From the NCBI RefSeq assembly GCF_001677475.2, contig NZ_CP015229.1: a stretch of DNA of 64,000 nt, one strand, 5' to 3'. Below, in pieces: positions 9,414-21,253 of the stretch (position 1 is its first letter; every line of letters begins with the position of its first letter). The notes under the pieces are model-generated. The model did no database searches. It had not been told where the DNA came from and saw only the letters and a list, made by a program, of their open reading frames with translations. The position numbers and the translations under genes are program-made. The DNA is from Escherichia coli (GTDB lineage: Bacteria > Pseudomonadota > Gammaproteobacteria > Enterobacterales > Enterobacteriaceae).

Positions 9414-10046
9414 GTGGCACAACGCGGTGTAAACAAAGTCATCCTGATTGGTACCCTGGGGCAAGACCCGGAGATCAGGTATATACCAAATGGCGGCGCG
9501 GTCGGAAGACTCAGCATCGCAACGAATGAATCATGGCGCGACAAGCAAACGGACCAACAGAAAGAGCAAACAGAATGGCATAAAGTCGTTTTGTTCGGAA
9601 AACTTGCTGAAATTGCGAGTGAGTATTTACGAAAAGGTTCTCAGGTCTACATCGAAGGGAAACTTAAAACCCGTAAGTGGACAGATGACGCCGGTGTAGA
9701 ACGTTACACGACGGAAATTATCGTCAGCCAGGGCGGCACCATGCAAATGATCGGCGCTCGCCGTGACGATTCACAGTCCTCAAATGGCTGGGGGCAATCA
9801 AACCAACCTCAAAACCACCAGCAATACAGTGGTGGCGGTAAACCTCAGAGCAACGCCAATAACGAACCTCCAATGGACTTTGACGACGATATTCAAAAAC
9901 GACTGAAAGAAAAGCGGTGGTCCAGACGCCGACAAAAGCACGAACTCGCTAAAAAACGCCAAAGCTGGCAATGGCACGCGCTTTTCACGAAAAGAACACC
10001 CCGAGGCATTGCTTTCGCTGGTGGGAAAACATTCCTCCCCACCTGA
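9414..10046 (+). CDS. ssb: single-stranded DNA-binding protein with non-canonical C-terminus (basic 50-aa extension after DFDDDI instead of terminal PF)
   Basis: Track ORF; OB-fold region closely resembles E. coli/P1 SSB (VNKVILIG...TEWH...MDFDDDI); reading continues [14 protein letters not shown]... to a stop at 10046. Confidence 0.85.
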
Positions 10047-10083
10047 AGGCGCAATACATCAAATTTTAAGCAGAGAAAAGACT

Positions 10084-10737
10084 ATGAATAAAATGGCAAC
10101 GAAAGAGCTTTTTAAGTTCCTTCCCAAATACAAAGCTCACAAAATCGTTAGTGCATCGAAAATCAAAGATATCGAGATTATCTCATTGATTGATAATACC
10201 CCTGCTTGTGGCTATATCACATTAATGGACCCCCAAGGCGTAACGGTTCGTGTTGATGCAGCGTTTTTGCAAAAACACCGACCAGATACTGGCGGCTATC
10301 TGCTCGGTTATGAGGACGGTTATCTGTCCTATTCACCAGAAAAAACATTTGAAGAAGGCTTTAGTCGGACTAACGACTTCTTCGAAAATGAGGTATCGCT
10401 TAGCATTGAAGGTCACAATGGGGTGACATTCATTACAGCCAGGGACGTAACTATTGCTGCCGGTGGCATCATTACCACACAAGAAGAAATCGACCTTGAA
10501 GCAGCCGACTTCTCTGACGCGCTAATGTGGTTGAAGGAAGGCAAGAAAGTTGCCCGACGCGAGTGGAAAGGCGAAAAGCAATTCTGCTGGTTAGTTCTCG
10601 CTGGAAGCGTCAATTTACACGGCATTCACGTTCCTTATGGTGACCATTTTGTATTGAAAGATGCACAAAATATGGACAGCGTTTGGTTGCCGTCTGTGGA
10701 TGATTTACTGGCATGTGACTGGTTTGTAGTGGAGTGA
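10084..10737 (+). CDS. two-domain protein: unknown N-terminal domain plus C-terminal DUF2829-like (Tad2-family-like) domain
   Basis: Track ORF 10009-10737 trimmed to the ATG in frame; C-terminal motif ALMWLKEGKKVARREWKG ... DWFVVE resembles DUF2829. Confidence 0.55.
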   Translation: MNKMATKELFKFLPKYKAHKIVSASKIKDIEIISLIDNTPACGYITLMDPQGVTVRVDAAFLQKHRPDTGGYLLGYEDGYLSYSPEKTFEEGFSRTNDFFENEVSLSIEGHNGVTFITARDVTIAAGGIITTQEEIDLEAADFSDALMWLKEGKKVARREWKGEKQFCWLVLAGSVNLHGIHVPYGDHFVLKDAQNMDSVWLPSVDDLLACDWFVVE

Positions 10738-10743
10738 TTTAAC

Positions 10744-11526
10744 GTGGAAAATACTAAAGCAATTCAATACCGCCTGCGTAATGGTCAGAGTGTCGAAGTG
10801 ACCATCAATAATGATGGTGTGCCTGGCGAAAAGGTTTCGATCTCTGATCTGGCTATCGAAAAAACCATCATGTGCCACCTTGGCTTTACTGAAGAAGTGA
10901 GCAAAAAGCATGGTGTAGCAATCTGGAGCGCAATGGATACTGGTATGCGCAGATTCATTACTGCTCGTACCCCAGGGATGACCATGATGGACCTCATGCA
11001 GATTGCGCCGCTGTTTGAATGTGAGCCTTTAGATGTATTCAGCAATCCAGCTATCTGCCAGCAGTTATATGGTGAGATGAAACTCGCGGTTACCCCCATT
11101 GTGCTGCATGAAGGATCGCTTGCTGGCGTGTGGAAAGTGGAGCGTATTTCAAGCTACATGCCTTTCCATGTCAACGGCGTAATCACTGGTGAAAATCAAC
11201 CTGTTTCCGTTATAAAGTCAGACCTCAAGCGCGCAATTCTTGAAGCAAGTTGTCGAGTTGTCGGCCTGGGCAAACAGTCTTATGTTTCCTTCCCGGCTGG
11301 CCCTGAAGGCCCGGCAGAAATTCTGATTATGGATGCCGATCTGCTATGGCAAATACAGTTTCTGATTGGCAAAAGCATCATCCGCGCTGAAGAACTCGAT
11401 CAGTACATTACCTGCACGATGACGGATGAAGTCAAAAGTGTGGCTATAGCCAATGCCCGGAACCTATGTCGTGCTGCATTAACAGAACTGCAAGAAAACA
11501 CCACGGAAGAGGTGGAAAGTGATTAA
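10744..11526 (+). CDS. hypothetical protein, 260 aa
   Basis: Track ORF; GTG start behind a GGAG RBS; tightly packed with neighbours. Confidence 0.5.
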   Translation: MENTKAIQYRLRNGQSVEVTINNDGVPGEKVSISDLAIEKTIMCHLGFTEEVSKKHGVAIWSAMDTGMRRFITARTPGMTMMDLMQIAPLFECEPLDVFSNPAICQQLYGEMKLAVTPIVLHEGSLAGVWKVERISSYMPFHVNGVITGENQPVSVIKSDLKRAILEASCRVVGLGKQSYVSFPAGPEGPAEILIMDADLLWQIQFLIGKSIIRAEELDQYITCTMTDEVKSVAIANARNLCRAALTELQENTTEEVESD

Positions 11527-12613
11527 TCGTATACAGAATGAATCTGCCTGGTTAGCACTGATAGAACGGTATAAAGACAATTGGGAACTGGCAGCAAAAG
11601 AGTTGCTTGATATTGAGTTAACACCTCATCAAGCAAAAATTATTAACGCGATAAAGAACACCGGAGCCAAAGTCACTGCCACCACACCACATGGTATTGG
11701 GGAAACCTCTATTGTGGCAGTGATTAGCATCCTGCAAACAATACTGTATTCGTGTTCCCGTACAGTGGTTGTTTCTCCTGCGATTAACGATAGTCGAAAA
11801 ACAATAATTGACTATATGTTCCGTTATTGGGAGCGAGTTACCCAAAAACACCCTTTTCTTGGCAATTATTTCAGAATACACCCTGACAAAGGGTTGGTGC
11901 ATATCAGTGAAACATGGGGATGCGTCTATATAACCTATTGTCTGAATAACGAAGAGTCTCTGGCTGGTTTTACTGGACCGCACGATCTTTTCATCGTTAT
12001 TAACTCGGCGGAAATCAGCGATCGCGCTCATGCAGTGATAACTGGCAATTTAACCAATTATGACTCGCGCCTGCTGTTGCTGTCGAAACCATCGGAACGC
12101 GAGAAAGGGTACTTTTATGATTCGCATCACCGGTTGGCCCATAGTAAAAACAATCCTGCTGGTTTTTTCACGGCGATAACTCTAAACACAGAGGATTCAC
12201 CTCTCGTTTCTGAAGCATATCTTGAATTCAAAGCCAAAGAGTTTGGTGGACGCAATAGCGATGAATATCGCCGATTGATCTTGGGGAAATTCCCCGGGAT
12301 TCGGGAGTTGATGGAAAAGTCATCTGTTCCCCGTAATATGCACTTCACAATGACTGACGGTAGTAAATGGGTAGTGCCTACGATCGTGATCGCCAAACAC
12401 CATGCGAAACATCACGCTCAAAAACACAACTCCAGCACATTAGACTGGCTGAAGGCCTATACAATACCGTTATTCTCGGCAAACCATAACGCTATAACTG
12501 AATGGGCTAAACAAATCCCCTGGCAGGATGTGGCTGAAGAGGCGTTTGTCGAAAAACCACCAAGAGATTTGCACGAGCACTGTTGGCTGACATCAGAAAA
12601 AAGCTTCTCGTGA
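11519..12613 (+). CDS. hypothetical protein with terminase-large-subunit-ATPase-like region and non-canonical P-loop (GIGETS)
   Basis: Track ORF; local pattern LTPHQ ... TTPHGIGETS ... DLFIVINSAE ... ITGN parallels the Q-motif/Walker A/Walker B/motif III spacing of large terminases, but the Walker A lysine is replaced by Glu. Confidence 0.45.
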   Translation: MINRIQNESAWLALIERYKDNWELAAKELLDIELTPHQAKIINAIKNTGAKVTATTPHGIGETSIVAVISILQTILYSCSRTVVVSPAINDSRKTIIDYMFRYWERVTQKHPFLGNYFRIHPDKGLVHISETWGCVYITYCLNNEESLAGFTGPHDLFIVINSAEISDRAHAVITGNLTNYDSRLLLLSKPSEREKGYFYDSHHRLAHSKNNPAGFFTAITLNTEDSPLVSEAYLEFKAKEFGGRNSDEYRRLILGKFPGIRELMEKSSVPRNMHFTMTDGSKWVVPTIVIAKHHAKHHAQKHNSSTLDWLKAYTIPLFSANHNAITEWAKQIPWQDVAEEAFVEKPPRDLHEHCWLTSEKSFS

Positions 12614-12644: not shown

Positions 12645-12953
12645 TCAATATACGATCTGGTCTACATGATCACCAAAATCATCGTCGTCGTCCTCATCGC
12701 CACCATCTACTGCTGGCCAATCAACAAACCAGCCAGCGTAAAGATGCAGCGTTCGGAGAACATCACTTGCGGGAGCATCAAGGGTGTTAACGAATCCCAT
12801 ATAGCTATTGGGATTTGCTCCAGCTATGGCTTCAGCGATCATGTCCTCGGTAATGTCACCGGAGATAATGCTTAAACGCCCGGAAACTTCTTCATTATCA
12901 TCAAATTCGATAATGGCATCTCCACCTAATGGCGCTGCGATTTTAATCTGCAT
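12645..12953 (-). CDS. small highly acidic protein (C-terminal DGGDEDDDDDFGDHVDQIVY), last gene of the dar operon
   Basis: Track ORF; overlaps the ddrB-like stop by 11 nt; function unknown. Confidence 0.5.
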   Translation of the reverse strand: MQIKIAAPLGGDAIIEFDDNEEVSGRLSIISGDITEDMIAEAIAGANPNSYMGFVNTLDAPASDVLRTLHLYAGWFVDWPAVDGGDEDDDDDFGDHVDQIVY

Positions 12954-13724
12954 TATTTAGCTCCTTTGCCACACCTAATAACAGTTCCAGCAATCCGTCA
13001 CCATTCATCAGTGATGCGGCAGCGGCCTCTTTGTCATGATACAACTGAAGAGCCATAGAGAATACTTCCGTTGCTGACGTTTTGGAAATAGTCGGTGATT
13101 TCTGCCGAATTTTCCCGGTGTTACTTACTGAGGCTGGCGGGTATACCTTCGCCATATAAATATTACTCAATCGAGATCTGAAGCACCATTCAGGCTTGCC
13201 ACGCCCACCGATATTGACGAAAGATGGCTTATCCCCTTCAACATTGGCCTTCAGGAATGACCGGGCTTTCTCTAACAAACCAGGGTTACTGTACTCAAGA
13301 TGATGACCCAGCTCGTGCCACAGTGCACTTGCATTTTCATCGTTCAAATTGACAGCAACAACACCATTTAGATTTGCATATGCCCTTCCCTGGTGGTGAA
13401 CTACCTTTGATAAGGTCGATATTTTCCCGCCGGTCAGGCGATAAATATCAGCAAGTTCCTTGCGCAGGTCTATCCCACCATTCTGTCCAGCGCGGGCTTC
13501 TTCCACTTCTTCTGTGATAAAAGAGTCGGCCCACTCAAGAGCTTTTTCTTCAGATACGGATGAGTTTGCGATCGCACTGTTCATGGCAGATAACACTTTC
13601 TCGTGGACCGAACCCATACTTCGCTGATTCATTTGCCAGCGTGTCTGCGGGTTATATGAGAATCGCTTAAGTAGTTGGTCAAGCTGCTCAAGTTCTTCTT
13701 CACTGACATACTTTTTAGCCTCAC
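12943..13724 (-). pseudogene. ddrB: 3' fragment of IS-interrupted ddrB-like gene (carries HELGHH zincin-like motif)
   Basis: Reading across the IS target duplication rejoins this frame to the upstream fragment (...PGIIGE|AKKYVSEEELEQL...). Confidence 0.6.
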
Positions 13725-13789
13725 TATTAGACGTCAACTAGTTTTGCCGACTCGCGCCAACTATACTGGCCGCACCCTTCAGGGCGACA

Positions 13790-14545
13790 TCAAGTCGCGC
13801 TTGTTACTGCCTTCGCTGTCTTTTTCCTGTAGCTTTCCCCTTTCAGTTCGAACATATATCCGTGATGGATCAGCCTGTCTGCCGCAGCCACCGCCATAGT
13901 CTCATCCACGAAGATGCTGCCCCACATGCTGAACGGATGGTTACTGGTTATCACCAGGCTCCCACGTTCATAGCGATGCGCTATTAACTCGAACAGCACA
14001 CCCGTTTCGGCACTATCGCGTTTGACATAGCCAAGATCATCCACCACTATCACCCGGTAGCGATCCAGTTTCAGTAGCAGCTCATTCAGTTTCAACTGAG
14101 CTCTGGCTTTACGTAGTTCCTGCAACAGCTCTCCTGCGCTGTAGAACCGGGCCCGGTAGCCCTGACCTACTACGCCATCCACGATCGCTGCCGCCAGATG
14201 GCTTTTCCCCAACCCGCTGGCTCCGAACAGCAGAACGTTTTCTCCTGCATCAACCCAGTCTGTCGTTTCACAGAGTTGCCGGAACTGAGCTCCATTCAGT
14301 TCCGGCACCTGACTGAAGTCGTATTCGCTCAGCGTTTTGGCAACTGGCAACCGGGCCTCCTTTTTATAACGACGCAGTTTTTCACTCTCGCGCCACAGGA
14401 GTTCTTCATTGCATAGCGTCAGAAGATAGCGCGATGGTGTCCAGCCTTCTGCCAGCGCTCGTTTTTCCAGAGCGTGCCATTCAGCTCCAACTCGTGTCAG
14501 GCGTAGTTTACGCAGGCTATGTTCAAGGTGATGGATATTGCTCAC
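13790..14545 (-). CDS. istB: IS21-family helper ATPase IstB
   Basis: Walker A GASGLGKSH, Walker B VIVVDDLGY, ITSNHPFSMW motif typical of IstB/DnaC-like AAA+ proteins. Confidence 0.9.
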   Translation of the reverse strand: MSNIHHLEHSLRKLRLTRVGAEWHALEKRALAEGWTPSRYLLTLCNEELLWRESEKLRRYKKEARLPVAKTLSEYDFSQVPELNGAQFRQLCETTDWVDAGENVLLFGASGLGKSHLAAAIVDGVVGQGYRARFYSAGELLQELRKARAQLKLNELLLKLDRYRVIVVDDLGYVKRDSAETGVLFELIAHRYERGSLVITSNHPFSMWGSIFVDETMAVAAADRLIHHGYMFELKGESYRKKTAKAVTSAT

Positions 14546-16041
14546 TGCGAACCTCCCTTGCCACGCAGTAGTTGCTCATAACTGCTCAGGTTATGCTGTA
14601 TCACATTGACTACCGGCAACGCCTTTTCTTTTATACCCAGGAAGCGCATCAGCCGGTGCAGATCCACGTTTCCCGGGGTATTCAGCATCTGCTCCATACC
14701 TTTTGCCACGACTGAGATATCGTCGTATCCTGCAGCCAGTTTCAGGGCATGTACCATCAGCCTTCCTGCCATATCGGGCTCCAGATGATTACATAAGCGA
14801 CGCCACAGCCTCCGCCATTCATCGTCCGGCAGGATGTCATTTCTCAGCGTTGCATGGCAGAACGCACCGGGCTTTTTTGCCAGACTGTCGATCACATGTC
14901 GGAAGTCGATACGACGGGCCCGCGTCTTCCCTTTTTCTGGTCTGACGCGAGGGCAGCTCATGACCTCGCTGCTGCCAACGTAACAGCTCAGACGATCGTC
15001 CCATAACCTGACCCGTAACAGTTGACCTACAAGCCGGGAAGGTACGCTGTAGACGACGTGCTTCACATTGATGGTACTGCTGCGACTAACCCTCACAGTC
15101 AGCTCATCATAGTCAGCACTGCGACGAAGCGGCAGCGGTTTCAGATGAAGACGTTCTTCCTTGACCAGATCCTGATTGTTACGGTTGTGCCGCATAACCT
15201 GCTGAGTGATGAAGGCCTGATATTCTTCTATGGTGCTGAAGTCGTTACTGCCCCGCAGTATCAGCGCCTGACAGATACGCCTTTTCAGATGTCCGTGGGC
15301 ACTTTCAACCGAGCCATTTTCGTGGCCCCGACCGGCATTATTGTGTACGCCCTGCATTCCGTAGTGCTGACAGAGAGTAGCATAACGCTCAGTCAGCTCG
15401 CGGCGTCCATCTTCGCCCTGTTGTTTCCATGCTGCCCTCAGGCTGTCCGTTTTATGTTCTACCGGCACTCCGCCCAGTTGTCCGAGGGCTTCCTGCAGGC
15501 CTTCAGCCAGAGCAGAGAAGCTCTCACCACCCAGAACAACCCGCATCCAGCTCCAGTGGCTCCATTCCAGACGGAAGTGATACAACTTATGCGCCAACAA
15601 CTTACCGGCGATGGTGACAACTACACCTTTCAGTTCAGTAAAGTCCGACAGGCCTCGCAGGCCGGGCTGATGTTGCTGGCGGAACATGACCTCCTGCTCT
15701 GTACCATACTGTAGTTTCCATTCGCGAACCCGCCGTTGCATTGTTCTTCGAAGGCTGTTGGGGTACTGGCCGGGATATTTATCCTGTAGCATCTCCAGTA
15801 GAGTTGTTGGTGTCAGAGCCGGCCTCTCTTTCAACAGAGGAACAAGCATGCTGTCCCACACAGCTTCCAGAGGATCTTTGCGTGTGCGCCAGTGCCGAAC
15901 ACTGTTTTTTGCCCACTCTCCTTTTTCGATCCGACGACCAGAACGGACTGAGATACCAGCCTTCATGGCCGAGATATGCTGAGTTATACCTTTCTTACGC
16001 TGAGTCATATAGTAACTGACCTGAGAAGTATTGAGCGTCAC
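14542..16041 (-). CDS. istA: IS21-family transposase IstA (true start may be an internal ATG)
   Basis: N-terminal HTH pattern like IS21 IstA, overlaps istB start in the typical istA-istB arrangement. Confidence 0.8.
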   Translation of the reverse strand: MTLNTSQVSYYMTQRKKGITQHISAMKAGISVRSGRRIEKGEWAKNSVRHWRTRKDPLEAVWDSMLVPLLKERPALTPTTLLEMLQDKYPGQYPNSLRRTMQRRVREWKLQYGTEQEVMFRQQHQPGLRGLSDFTELKGVVVTIAGKLLAHKLYHFRLEWSHWSWMRVVLGGESFSALAEGLQEALGQLGGVPVEHKTDSLRAAWKQQGEDGRRELTERYATLCQHYGMQGVHNNAGRGHENGSVESAHGHLKRRICQALILRGSNDFSTIEEYQAFITQQVMRHNRNNQDLVKEERLHLKPLPLRRSADYDELTVRVSRSSTINVKHVVYSVPSRLVGQLLRVRLWDDRLSCYVGSSEVMSCPRVRPEKGKTRARRIDFRHVIDSLAKKPGAFCHATLRNDILPDDEWRRLWRRLCNHLEPDMAGRLMVHALKLAAGYDDISVVAKGMEQMLNTPGNVDLHRLMRFLGIKEKALPVVNVIQHNLSSYEQLLRGKGGSQ

Positions 16042-16129
16042 GCCATTTCCTGTTGGATCATGTAAATGACACTCAGGTTACAAAACCGGCCAGAATAATC
16101 GGCGCCAGGCGGACTGAGTTATTGTCGTC

Positions 16130-18346
16130 TCATACCTCACCAATAATGCCAGGGAGAATATTGCCGTTAGGATTAAACGCTCGCGAAAGGAAGAGTTTCA
16201 GCGCCCCCATGCCCTCCGATGCTTCAATATCACCAATAACCCGGTTAACAATGGCCGCACTCTTCGGATTAGCATCCGCCAACGCTCTGGCTACAATTTG
16301 CAGGGACGATACGACCTCACGCTGCATATCCGTCCTGATCTCATCAATAAACTCTGGCGTTATGCCGTGCTCTTTAAGAATATCCCTGCCTTCCGCCGTT
16401 ACCCCATCGATATCACCGACATGTTTATTAACCCGACTTTGCAATGCCTTAAATGCCTTCAGAATTCCACGGGAATCATCCGCTTTACTAACGGCCTTCC
16501 TGAATGCTGGCAAGAAGTCTGAGTTAACCTCATTTTGTTGATCGGCCCACTGAATGGAGGCTTCTTTCATCTCGTCCAGAGTCAGATCACCCAACGCGGT
16601 ATGGTCTGTGAATATGAGCGACAACCTCTGAACCATTTCTGCCAATGGTGATGCCGAATGCGCCGCGCTAAGGAATGCTTTCACCCTGGTTGGGCGAATG
16701 GAAAACCAGTCAATAGCTGGTGGCATATCTCCGTTTTGTATCGCCTGCGCTATCTCATCAAAGCCGTCGCGCCCAAGGGAGGATGCGTGATTTAACAATC
16801 CGCGAAGTAACGAATTGCTGATACCGAATAATCGGCACCATTTATTCACGTCGGCAACAGGCATTCGAACAAAATGCGCAAGCACTTGTACAAGCTGTTC
16901 ATCCTGGGGATCTGTACGGGAAAGCAGCCTGATCAGATGAATAATGTCTTTGATGCCGGATGCCCGATGTAATAGCAAGCTGGTATATGGAGCAACACCG
17001 TTGTAACTACCGCCGGAAACGGACTCGAAAAGACCGCCGGATATCCCTTGCATGCCTTCGTTTTCCAGTTCCTGAGACACCTGGCGAAGGATATCCTGTA
17101 ACGACACATCGCCGCCGCCAAACATATCCCCCAGCGCCTGGCCCTGGTGCTGTAACTCATCATTGATACGTTGAGCCATCAACTTAAAGGCGGTGGCCAT
17201 ACGCTTCGCGCTACGGTTATTCGCGACGATGAACAACGCGAGTGCTTTCACTTCCGGGGCCGTTTCGCTGAACATATCCCCCTGAGCAATAACATCGGTA
17301 ATATGCTGGCCTGACTCCTTCGATTGCCTTACCAGGTCTACCGCATCTTTCAATGCCGCCAGCGCCTTTTTATCGAGGCTATCCGCTGTCTCAATGCCAT
17401 CAACAATAGTTGTCACAGCCTGCTTGTGCGCTTCTCCTGATAAAGCCTGCATCTGGACAAAATCATTGGCTGCCGCATTAAGCGCCGTCAGAACATTACG
17501 CATATCCGGATCAGGTTCTTCTGCAACCATCCTTACCAGGCGCGCATCCTTATATGCCTTGGCAAAGATCGCGTTTTGTATACGGTCAACAAGTTGCCGC
17601 GTTGGTCGCCCATCTTCCGTTACAAGGCCAGCAGCCTGTGTGGCACCAACTTGCGTCATGAATCCGCGAATAAACGCGTCATTACTGCGGCTAAGCAGAT
17701 CTCCGCTTTCTGACGGATTAAACAGCGCCATCATCGCCGGTGTTATGCTGTCGGCATCAACAAAAGCCTTTTCACTGGCTGCCATTTCCTGAAGATCAGA
17801 AATATTTGAGTCCTTGGCAAACTGAACGCGGTCAACCTTAGTTAACCGGCGGCGCACCAATACAGGAGCCGTCATTGATTCAACCTTTTCAGGTCGTATG
17901 CCGAATTCGGTCGCATGTTCAATCAGGTACTCACGATACCGATCCGCATTGCCGTCCTGATAGGCTTTAATGATTCCCATGGTCCGTCCATTACCTGACT
18001 CAACGGCATTGTCCTCACCAATTATCGGCGCGCCATGGCTGGATAAACCGGAATCGGTAAGCTGAGCAGGCCGCAAATCTTTGGATATCTGGTTAACCTG
18101 AAGAAGGCTGGATGCGCGGGTCCGGTCGCGCGGCTGAAGTTCCTGGGGATAGTCAGGATTAATTTTCCCATCCAGAGTATTGGATACCAAAAGAGCTGAG
18201 GCATCGACGATATCAAACGCTGTTTTTACCTCGTCTCCCTTCGCTGTCACCACATACGAAACCCGCCCATAATCGGGCAGGTTCTTAAGCAGCTCGATCA
18301 GCGTTTCTATGCTGGTGGCAATTACCACCTGATCGCTTAAGCTCAT
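16130..18346 (-). pseudogene. ddrB: 5' fragment of IS-interrupted ddrB-like gene; 738-codon ORF ending with an IS-encoded Val-stop
   Basis: ORF runs from the dar operon into the IS terminus and stops 2 codons inside; position after darA-ddrA matches P1. Confidence 0.6.
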
Positions 18347-18358
18347 CCCTGTTACGCC

Positions 18359-18724
18359 TTATGCTGCCTCTTCAATGTTGGCGGCTATCCATGCCGCCGT
18401 GTGCTGTTTAACCTGGTCCAGGTCGATGTATGTGCCAACATATTGACTCAAGTCCTGCAAGGTACCGATAAATGCATCTGTGCTCTGATCGACGAATTTA
18501 TCAGCCAGGAAATCAGCAACCAGTTTTGGCACACCATCATGTTCCGAAGGTTGTTTTTCCTCGCCACTACCACCGCCGGACGCGCCGTACCCCATCTGTT
18601 GCATGATCTGGTCAATTTCATCGCTGATATCCAGCAACTCCATGCCACTCGCGGTAGCAGCTTTGGACATCAGAGAATCCAACTTGTCGCTGAGGTCCAT
18701 TAACTCAATAGCTGATAGTGTCAT
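18359..18724 (-). CDS. DdrA-like small acidic protein
   Basis: Track ORF, overlaps darA stop; assigned by position. Confidence 0.4.
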   Translation of the reverse strand: MTLSAIELMDLSDKLDSLMSKAATASGMELLDISDEIDQIMQQMGYGASGGGSGEEKQPSEHDGVPKLVADFLADKFVDQSTDAFIGTLQDLSQYVGTYIDLDQVKQHTAAWIAANIEEAA

Positions 18725-20640
18725 GCCGCTACCCCCGCTTTCTGGATTGCTACCAGCAGATCAGCCAGGTGGCGAGCAGCGCCATTAACCAGCTCTTCGT
18801 TTTCCTCAAAACGCCCGGCAGCCTGAAGGGCTGCAATCGCTTCCCGGACATTACCCCGGGCGTTACGGATCTCCGCCATGTCAGTGCTTTGCATATCCAT
18901 CACGTTATTGAGATATTCAATGGCTTTATTAGCCTCTGCATCTGCTTCGCTAACCGTTTCATCAGGCTGTGCCGGGGCAGGTTCTGGCTGAGTAATCTCA
19001 CCGACTTCGGCCTGCAATGCATTGATCATGCTCTGCACCATTTTCTCGGTGCCAGCGCCCCCCGGAAACGCAATATTGGGGAAAGTTTTTTGAAACTGAG
19101 TTTTCAGCATTACGCGGAACTCGTCTGGTGAGCTGGTGGCCAGCTCCAGAGCTTTTTGTGCATATTTGCCAAACGGACCATTAGTAAGTGTCTTCGCCAG
19201 GAAGTCGAAAGAATCCTCGCGAGGCAATAACTTCAGGTCGTACTCACTCATTTGCTGATCAGAAAGCGGGGTATCGTAAGTAGCAATGCCGTAGCGTGCA
19301 TATTCATAATACGGGTCACCTTCATCAGGGCGCGGCAGAATTGCTTTGTTACCTTCAGGTATTGCGCCAGGGGCCGCCGGACGCATTTGCAGGGCATATC
19401 GATATGCACCTACAGAGACTTCTGGTTCAGGCGAAGAGCTACCGGTATCCTCCGCTGGTTCAGGTTCGACGTTTTCCGGTTTATGTTCTTCTGGTTGGAC
19501 CAGGTATTCCGATACATTACCCGCTTTATAGGCTTTAAACAGCTTGCCGATCGCATCTGCCATGTCCACACCCTGTATGGATTTAGCCTTGATCATGTAC
19601 ACGCTGCCATCCGAATCGGTTAACTGGATATACCCTTCGCCGTCCTCAATGAATTGCTTCATTGATGCTCCATTACTGAGCGTCACTTCCCCGTTCATAT
19701 GCATACGATTTTTGATACTGGCAAGGCGATCCGTCAGCGCGCGCGAGTGCCCACCAGTCATCCCCGCTGGATCAATGGTATCGCGCCCACCTGTGCGATT
19801 GAGCTGATCAATCTCCGTCTGCAAACGCTCATTCTCTTCATAAAGAGAATCCGCTTCCGATGCAACAGCGTTAATTTTCTGCTCCAGATCTACCTTCTGC
19901 CCTTCTACCGCTGCCACCTGATCCGCGAGGTCGCTCATGGCATCCTCTTTCTGGTCACTGTCAGCCTGTAGTTGGGTTATTTCATCAACCAGGGCTTTTT
20001 TCTTCTTCTGCGCACGCTGGAATTTTGCCGAGTTTTTCTCTGCAAGGTTGGCAAGTTTCATGGTGACCTGCGCCAGCGTCATATCACGTCCACTCATCGG
20101 AGCAACGGTGTGAGTAACGTCTTTTTTATTCAGTAAGAACTGGAAAGCAACCAGCGTATCGCTATTGGTGATCCGGTTTTCCGCTGTCGGGCTATGAAAC
20201 AGAATGCTGATAGTCTGACCATCACTGAGCGGAATAATGGCTGGCAGGACCGGCAGCCCGTTAACGTTACGTGCCCGGCCAATTTCAGCACCGCCGATCG
20301 CGCGCGCGCCGCTCTGGGCCACCTCCCCCGTTTTATCACTCCCCGCAGAGATTCCGGTACCATTCAGCTTCTGGTTCAATGCCCGGACAAATGCCTGCAT
20401 GGTCCGGTGTAACTGCAAACGAGTAGAACTAATCGCCTCCAGTAAATCCGTAGCACACCAGTGGATCGGCGTGTCATAGAAGAACGTAGCCTCGATTTCC
20501 TCCAGGGTGTTGGATTCCGTCATCAGATAGCGGTCCTCACCGGCCATTAATGCGCGATATTCATCATCAGTCACTGGCGGGGGAAGCACGTCAAGCCCAG
20601 GCTTGATCGTCACCCCTTTATTGATATTTAACTGTTCCAT
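18721..20640 (-). CDS. darA: DarA-like capsid-delivered antirestriction protein, 639 aa
   Basis: Size and position (hdf-darA-ddrA-ddrB) match P1; coiled-coil central region. Confidence 0.6.
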   Translation of the reverse strand: MEQLNINKGVTIKPGLDVLPPPVTDDEYRALMAGEDRYLMTESNTLEEIEATFFYDTPIHWCATDLLEAISSTRLQLHRTMQAFVRALNQKLNGTGISAGSDKTGEVAQSGARAIGGAEIGRARNVNGLPVLPAIIPLSDGQTISILFHSPTAENRITNSDTLVAFQFLLNKKDVTHTVAPMSGRDMTLAQVTMKLANLAEKNSAKFQRAQKKKKALVDEITQLQADSDQKEDAMSDLADQVAAVEGQKVDLEQKINAVASEADSLYEENERLQTEIDQLNRTGGRDTIDPAGMTGGHSRALTDRLASIKNRMHMNGEVTLSNGASMKQFIEDGEGYIQLTDSDGSVYMIKAKSIQGVDMADAIGKLFKAYKAGNVSEYLVQPEEHKPENVEPEPAEDTGSSSPEPEVSVGAYRYALQMRPAAPGAIPEGNKAILPRPDEGDPYYEYARYGIATYDTPLSDQQMSEYDLKLLPREDSFDFLAKTLTNGPFGKYAQKALELATSSPDEFRVMLKTQFQKTFPNIAFPGGAGTEKMVQSMINALQAEVGEITQPEPAPAQPDETVSEADAEANKAIEYLNNVMDMQSTDMAEIRNARGNVREAIAALQAAGRFEENEELVNGAARHLADLLVAIQKAGVAA

Positions 20641-20641
20641 G

Positions 20642-21253
20642 TTAATTTCCTGCTTTCAGTTGCTTAAGACGACGTTTGAGTTCGCCATTCCGTGCCTTTT
20701 CGTTATTGAGTCGGCCCGTCTCCTTATCCAGCTTCGCCCGCAAATCAGTGATCTGCTGTTGATTGAAAGACACCGAATTCTGCGCGGACTTATAAGCGGC
20801 AACCACCTGAGCATTCCGCTGTTTTGCTTCTTGCAGGCGCTGAAAGTTGGATTTAACTGCCGGTTTCTTGTCTACCGGATTGGCAACACGCTTCGCTTTG
20901 GCGATCAGTGATTTCTGGAATTTTGCGGAGTTTTTGCGGGCCGCCTGTCCCATGACGGTACCAAGCGTCTTGATATCCGGCGACTGAGCGTTAGGAATAG
21001 CTTTTCCATTCAGTTTCACAGACGATATATCGCCAGTATCGTTTACCTGTATGGCAAGAATTTGTCCGTCGTTAAGAACCAGCTTTGCGGTTTTAACTTT
21101 AACGCCATCTTTCGTTGTTGCGCGGTTGCTGGAGTCAACCTCAATTACCGTAACACCGGTTTTATTGATCGCCGCGATAAGGGATTTCAGCCCCTTTTCA
21201 TTAACCTGGTCAAAATCGACCGTTGCATACTTATTTTTCGTCATCTGACACAT
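20642..21253 (-). CDS. Hdf-like protein (dar operon)
   Basis: Track ORF directly upstream of darA; coiled-coil basic protein. Confidence 0.45.
   Translation of the reverse strand: MCQMTKNKYATVDFDQVNEKGLKSLIAAINKTGVTVIEVDSSNRATTKDGVKVKTAKLVLNDGQILAIQVNDTGDISSVKLNGKAIPNAQSPDIKTLGTVMGQAARKNSAKFQKSLIAKAKRVANPVDKKPAVKSNFQRLQEAKQRNAQVVAAYKSAQNSVSFNQQQITDLRAKLDKETGRLNNEKARNGELKRRLKQLKAGN

Follow-up and report, generated by a model that had tools for sequence, protein, structure and literature searches.

In the window (the whole stretch of 64,000 nucleotides of Escherichia coli DNA analysed here), the gene order of the P1 darA operon, hdf, darA, ddrA, ddrB and hxr, is kept around a ddrB gene that lies in two pieces (Table 1). 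The open reading frame at 12943-13737 on the minus strand encodes a product of 264 amino acids, which from its residue 6 onward corresponds to residues 737-995 of the 995-amino-acid DdrB protein of P1, with 257 of 259 residues identical. At the DNA level, this region is about 98-99.6% identical to P1-family phages and the homology to P1 stops exactly at position 13724, the end coordinate that the original prediction had given. The identity and the darA-ddrA-ddrB-hxr synteny establish the gene as the orthologue of P1 ddrB. Residues are numbered below either within the fragment or as in P1 DdrB, the fragment number plus 736 giving the P1 number.

The frame of 995 codons is not intact in the window, where an insertion sequence (IS) of 2410 bp follows codon 737. 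Full-length copies of this element in E. coli genomes, annotated as belonging to the ISEc10 family, are 99.9% identical to it. The only start available to the open reading frame of the 3' piece is a TTG at 13737, inside the end of the IS; the first in-frame ATG is 36 codons further in, and no Shine-Dalgarno-like sequence was seen upstream of the TTG. The 5' piece agrees with P1 DdrB in 725 of 737 residues. With ddrB split by the IS at this point, what the window carries of the peptidase domain is a remnant detached from the ParB-bearing DdrB body to which it is fused in P1, and the reading frame and its start indicate that the severed fragment is most likely an unexpressed pseudogene remnant. 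The original prediction had described the fragment as belonging to an internal capsid protein; it is indeed the C-terminal piece of DdrB, now cut off by the IS and no longer part of an intact protein. When the ddrB::IS junction was searched in PLSDB, no plasmid match was obtained.

On the other side of hxr, the segment at 10009-12613 (plus strand) takes the place that isaA/IS1/isaB have in P1 between ssb and hxr, a place where P7 and JL22 carry a porin gene. The open reading frame at 10009-10737 (plus strand) encodes a Tad2-like (Thoeris anti-defence 2) domain (Pfam, E 4e-18), and those at 10744-11526 (260 amino acids) and 11519-12613 (364 amino acids), both on the plus strand, gave no Pfam match.

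Table 1. Features of the ddrB region in the window, with P1 residue numbers unless stated otherwise.
Feature	Position	Strand	Description
hxr	12645-12953	-	102-aa ORF; 11-nt overlap with the ddrB stop
ddrB 3' remnant	12943-13724	-	259 residues = DdrB 737-995, plus TAA stop at 12943-12945; 99% identity to P1 DdrB
Core zincin fold	12946-13467	-	fragment residues 86-259 (P1 822-995); AlphaFold model; a helix precedes strand 106-109
E955 (fragment E219)	13066-13068	-	conserved TEVFS motif; invariant in alignments A2 and A3; start of predicted helix 220-226 (fragment)
Y925 and Y930	13141-13158	-	conserved Tyr between HExxH and the Glu helix; Y925 at 13156-13158, Y930 at 13141-13143
HELGHHLE	13294-13317	-	codons verified; HELGHH at 13300-13317
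E879	13294-13296	-	in HELGHHLE
H877	13300-13302	-	in HELGHHLE
H876	13303-13305	-	in HELGHHLE
E873	13312-13314	-	in HELGHHLE
H872	13315-13317	-	in HELGHHLE
R849	13384-13386	-	conserved RAY strand ahead of the active-site helix; invariant in A3; R in 132/148 rows among the best 150 homologues
Target-site duplication, left copy	13719-13724		CCTCAC (6 bp); verified in the sequence
ISEc10-like IS21-family element	13725-16134	-	2410 bp; boundaries from comparison with P1
istB	13790-14545	-	NCBIfam IstB match; same orientation as ddrB
istA	14542-16041	-	NCBIfam IS21 transposase match; same orientation as ddrB
Target-site duplication, right copy	16135-16140		CCTCAC (6 bp); verified in the sequence
ddrB 5' part	16130-18346	-	residues 1-737 (16133-18346), then Val and stop from the IS end; 738 aa, 80.3 kDa
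ddrB-ParB domain	17846-18241	-	DdrB residues 36-167; Pfam match
ddrA	18359-18724	-	ORF list, synteny with P1
darA	18721-20640	-	DarA_N and DarA_C Pfam matches, synteny with P1
hdf	20642-21253	-	ORF list, synteny with P1

Conservation of the HExxH motif and extent of the family

The product of the 3' piece holds ALWHELGHHLEY within ...NASALWHELGHHLEYSNPG..., and the HELGHH motif to which the original prediction drew attention is present in ALWHELGHHLEY. The six frames of the window contain four HExxH motifs, against 5.1 expected, and a single HExxHH, a number that 21 of 100 shuffles also reach. The motif thus occurs at the rate of chance, as would be the case if it had arisen by accident in a non-enzymatic C-terminal region, and its significance depends only on conservation and fold. 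When the fragment, full-length DdrB and 12 homologues were scanned against Pfam, NCBIfam and PHROGs, no peptidase family was found and PHROGs gave 'unknown function' only; the lack of a Pfam or NCBIfam peptidase match speaks for the same reading. The Pfam peptidase and metallopeptidase (MPTase) models gave no match to the fragment, full-length P1 DdrB or the 12 homologues at E values up to 10, and judging by these comparisons the DdrB-type clade appears to be outside the coverage of Pfam.

Homologues were collected by an exhaustive HMMER scan of 1.84 billion representatives at 50% identity (E <= 1e-3), which was used because a word-indexed search, whether started from one sequence or from a profile, returned close relatives only. 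The scan placed the DdrB-type peptidase family at 392 clusters at 50% identity. Among the best 150 of these 392 homologues, fragment residues H136, E137, H140 and E143 are each kept in 152-153 of about 155 aligned rows, E178 in 126/136, Y189 in 132/137 and Y194 in 129/134, and the second histidine of the HH pair (H877) in 119/157. In alignment A3, which holds 30 sequences with 19-42% identity to the query, R113, H136, E137, H140, E143, E178, Y189, E219 and S222 are invariant. The HExxH motif is therefore essentially invariant over this range, and H872, E873, H876, E879 and E955 are invariant or nearly so even in homologues whose identity is as low as about 20%. The family signature can be written as R...HExGH(H)xE...E...YxxxxY...(T/S)ExxS. 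The 'further His/Glu-rich stretch downstream' of the original prediction was not recovered as a compositional feature; what is present instead are the discrete conserved residues H877, E879, E914 and E955.

The orthologue in Cronobacter phage JK004, with 59% identity over the whole protein and 41-42% over the aligned C-terminal fragment, keeps the motif as HEVGHHLE. The comparison of P1 and JK004 DdrB also revealed a mosaic, in which the first 440 residues (ParB region) are about 95% identical and residues 480-820 are barely alignable. More distant homologues, with 23-26% identity, were found in the Vibrio Ackermannviridae phages VAP7, D506, YC, K476, 1.244.A, GR28A and 207E48.1. In these phages the domain forms the extreme C-terminus of proteins, 630-1207 amino acids long, that have no other annotation, and it keeps the RAY, LWHExGHxxE and TEVxSMGLQ motifs. 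The protein C-terminus is at most 11 residues past the domain in 29 of 32 full-span homologues, and the partner domains of the homologues are ddrB-ParB, InPase with two ddrB-ParB, and Phage_Mu_F. The setting is that of the polyvalent-protein MPTases, zincins in multidomain phage or conjugative proteins that are delivered with DNA, as described by Iyer et al. 2017 (PMC5512222), who name P1 DdrB among them.

Predicted fold and comparison with known zincins

AlphaFold models of the fragment reached a pLDDT of 71.9 with an alignment of 12 sequences, and of 89.9, with a pTM of 0.84, with an alignment of 30 sequences. In fragment numbering, the model runs from an N-terminal helical lead-in, which precedes the zincin-like MPTase domain in the remnant, through strands 106-109 and 121-124, the HExxH helix 132-145, a second helix, a β-rich insert and helix 220-226 to two C-terminal helices. 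H136, E137 and H140 are predicted to share one helix, preceded by a small β-sheet, as expected of a zincin. The invariant E219 opens helix 220-226 in the model and would be the third metal ligand, with E143 and E178 as alternative conserved acids. The nearest solved folds to the model are zincin metallopeptidases or degenerate copies of them, so that the structure prediction, like the conservation, agrees with the original prediction.

Taken together, these results refute the chance-motif reading, which we consider practically out of the question: the HExxH motif is kept across the aligned homologues and the model gives it the canonical helical position that it has in zincin-like folds. A further reading is that the domain is an inert zincin-like scaffold that serves protein-protein interaction or capsid targeting, as in the lethal-factor-like N-terminal domains of anthrax EF, LF and Certhrax. 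In those inert domains the HExxH motif has been lost. In the DdrB family, in contrast, the two histidines and the glutamate of the motif, the downstream glutamate and the two tyrosines are nearly invariant at about 20-40% identity, the pattern expected of a working active site, and an inert scaffold is for this reason very improbable.

The predicted fold is zincin-like and appears to come closest to the M34 and MtfA types, while at the level of sequence the domain belongs to no curated peptidase family. A Foldseek search of the PDB returned nothing significant, and sequence and profile searches of PDB chains likewise returned nothing significant and did not retrieve LF or PPEP. The best PDB profile match, to the active-site strand and HEAGH of FtsH, had an E value of 0.33 and was discarded as evidence. 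With the MEROPS M34 peptidases (PPEP-2, PPEP-3 and the catalytic domain of anthrax lethal factor) the DdrB domain shares about 14-15% identity, with no Pfam match. It differs from them in a long β-rich insert, some 75 residues in length, that separates HExxH from the Glu helix, in the additional conserved residues of HExxHHxE and E914, and in its setting, since the M34 members are secreted toxins or proteases whereas DdrB belongs to the phage head. MtfA (Mlc titration factor A, PDB 3dl1) is a zincin that acts as a stand-alone cytoplasmic regulator and aminopeptidase, and no relation to the DdrB domain was detected at the sequence level.

With respect to context, the closest parallels are the C-terminal domain of ArdC, TraC1 and the N4 virion RNA polymerase region, which likewise carry a zincin module in a multidomain protein delivered with mobile-element DNA. 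Transfer or packaging of the ArdC, TraC1 and N4 proteins takes place in unprocessed form, whereas processing is reported for DdrB (Iyer et al. 2017, PMC5512222). In addition, the DdrB-type clade is phage-specific and C-terminal, unlike the ArdC, TraC1 and N4 MPTases.

Possible roles of the peptidase domain

The idea that DdrB is a metallopeptidase is already known, from annotation since 2004 and from papers since 2013. The ddrB note of the P1 RefSeq/GenBank record, part of the P1 annotation since 2004, reads 'possible metallopeptidase', the gene is named prt ('putative protease') in P7, and the JL22 annotation gives 'putative metallopeptidase'. The DdrB family was listed among suspected, not yet formally described zincins by Lenart et al. 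2013, and Iyer, Burroughs, Anand, de Souza & Aravind 2017 (PMC5512222) defined the C-terminal MPTase domain of P1 DdrB and proposed its autoproteolysis to a 76-kDa form. The domain in the window is the same one, at the same place in the operon. The original prediction was aware of no such function assigned to a Dar component, but these records and papers assign one; its candidate metallopeptidase survives as a zincin-like domain supported by conservation and predicted fold, and the suggestion of novelty does not. No biochemical report of Zn2+ binding or peptide hydrolysis by any family member was found in the literature searched. The present analysis brings no new concept; it adds independent support from conservation, a confident structure model, a family that is large and absent from Pfam, the naming of its apparent nearest solved relatives (lethal-factor/PPEP and MtfA zincins) and a natural IS-truncated ddrB allele.

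We consider it probable that the stretch is a 3' remnant of ddrB with the described MPTase domain, and that in intact DdrB this domain binds Zn2+ and cleaves its own protein near residue 700. By analogy with the mechanism and architecture of gluzincins, H872, H876 and E955 would bind Zn2+ and E873 would be the general base that activates the hydrolytic water. In zincins of the lethal-factor/PPEP type a tyrosine stabilises the transition state, and either Y925 or Y930 is a candidate for this function in DdrB. The domain would cut its own polypeptide in a poorly conserved linker around residue 700, so that the N-terminal part with the ParB domain would be set free as the species of about 76 kDa reported for P1 heads, and the peptidase would be discarded. 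Residues 660-780 are the least conserved part of DdrB between P1 and JK004, which fits a linker, and residues 1-700 of P1 DdrB have a computed mass of 76.3 kDa. A processed DdrB of 76 kDa (about 700 amino acids) in P1 heads is reported by Iyer et al. 2017 (PMC5512222) with reference to Łobocka 2004 and Walker & Walker 1981. Self-cleavage is the likeliest role of the domain, with a somewhat better than even chance of being the right one. If the domain is active, it would account for the trimming of P1 DdrB before the Dar anti-restriction cargo enters the head or while it does so, and, more widely, for the way in which phages divide polyvalent virion proteins into functional pieces.

The main rival to self-cleavage is activity in trans, in which the zincin would either process other head-internal Dar proteins during morphogenesis or be injected with the DNA and cleave host restriction or defence targets. 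The strong conservation of the catalytic residues would serve this role equally, and Iyer et al. 2017 (PMC5512222) allow both options for the MPTases of polyvalent proteins. It also agrees with the P1 record, in which DarA is proteolytically processed, and with the listing of DdrB as helping the addition of DarB to the capsid. In virion mass spectrometry of P1 (Gonzales 2022), full-length DdrB was covered to 59.5%, no positions being given for the peptides, and this figure is compatible with a packaged C-terminal domain. This coverage would correspond to about 85% of the 700-residue fragment, so the C-terminal domain may be present in P1 virions. Against a role in trans, the larger capsid-targeted proteins that carry the domain nearly always end with it, as would suit a module that removes itself. 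Head maturation in P1 has a predicted prohead protease of its own, Pro, and for the DdrB domain no substrate is known. On balance we regard activity in trans as rather unlikely. It is still more doubtful that the DdrB-type zincins are a distinct uncurated family (at least 392 clusters) of phage-delivered effector proteases, injected with the DNA to cleave host restriction or defence proteins; if they were, the ddrB::IS allele in the window would be a ready-made separation-of-function mutant.

Under the self-cleavage reading, which we favour, the allele can be considered in another way. The truncated DdrB of the window (738 amino acids, 80.3 kDa) extends about 37 residues beyond the processed form of P1 heads, and because the two differ so little in length the IS insertion may mimic the processing product and make the peptidase dispensable. 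A natural IS-truncated allele that ends 37 residues past the presumed cleavage point could help to decide whether P1-type phages require the peptidase.

Genes adjacent to members of the family

Some neighbouring genes of the homologues were also observed. On the Logan contig SRR9182847_86721 (2986-12221), a distant homologue of 625 amino acids is located between a protein of 1001 amino acids with InPase and DarA_N domains and an LPD1 protein of 1448 amino acids, and the locus resembles a Dar-like cluster of internal proteins in an unrelated phage. An open reading frame of about 87-102 amino acids lies directly 3' of the MPTase-bearing gene, mostly overlapping it, in P1-like phages, Vibrio phages and a metagenomic MuF-fusion locus (window 12645-12953, which is hxr, also in P1 and JK004; L004:4759-5031; L005:4567-4830; L008:3546-3809; L009:3564-3827; L011:3699-3962; L013:3194-3487). 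That these small open reading frames form one conserved, hxr-like partner gene was considered and dropped, since a profile-profile comparison of Hxr with the others gave a probability of 0.2%. The Hxr protein of P1 itself has a very acidic sequence, unlike an Xre-type repressor.
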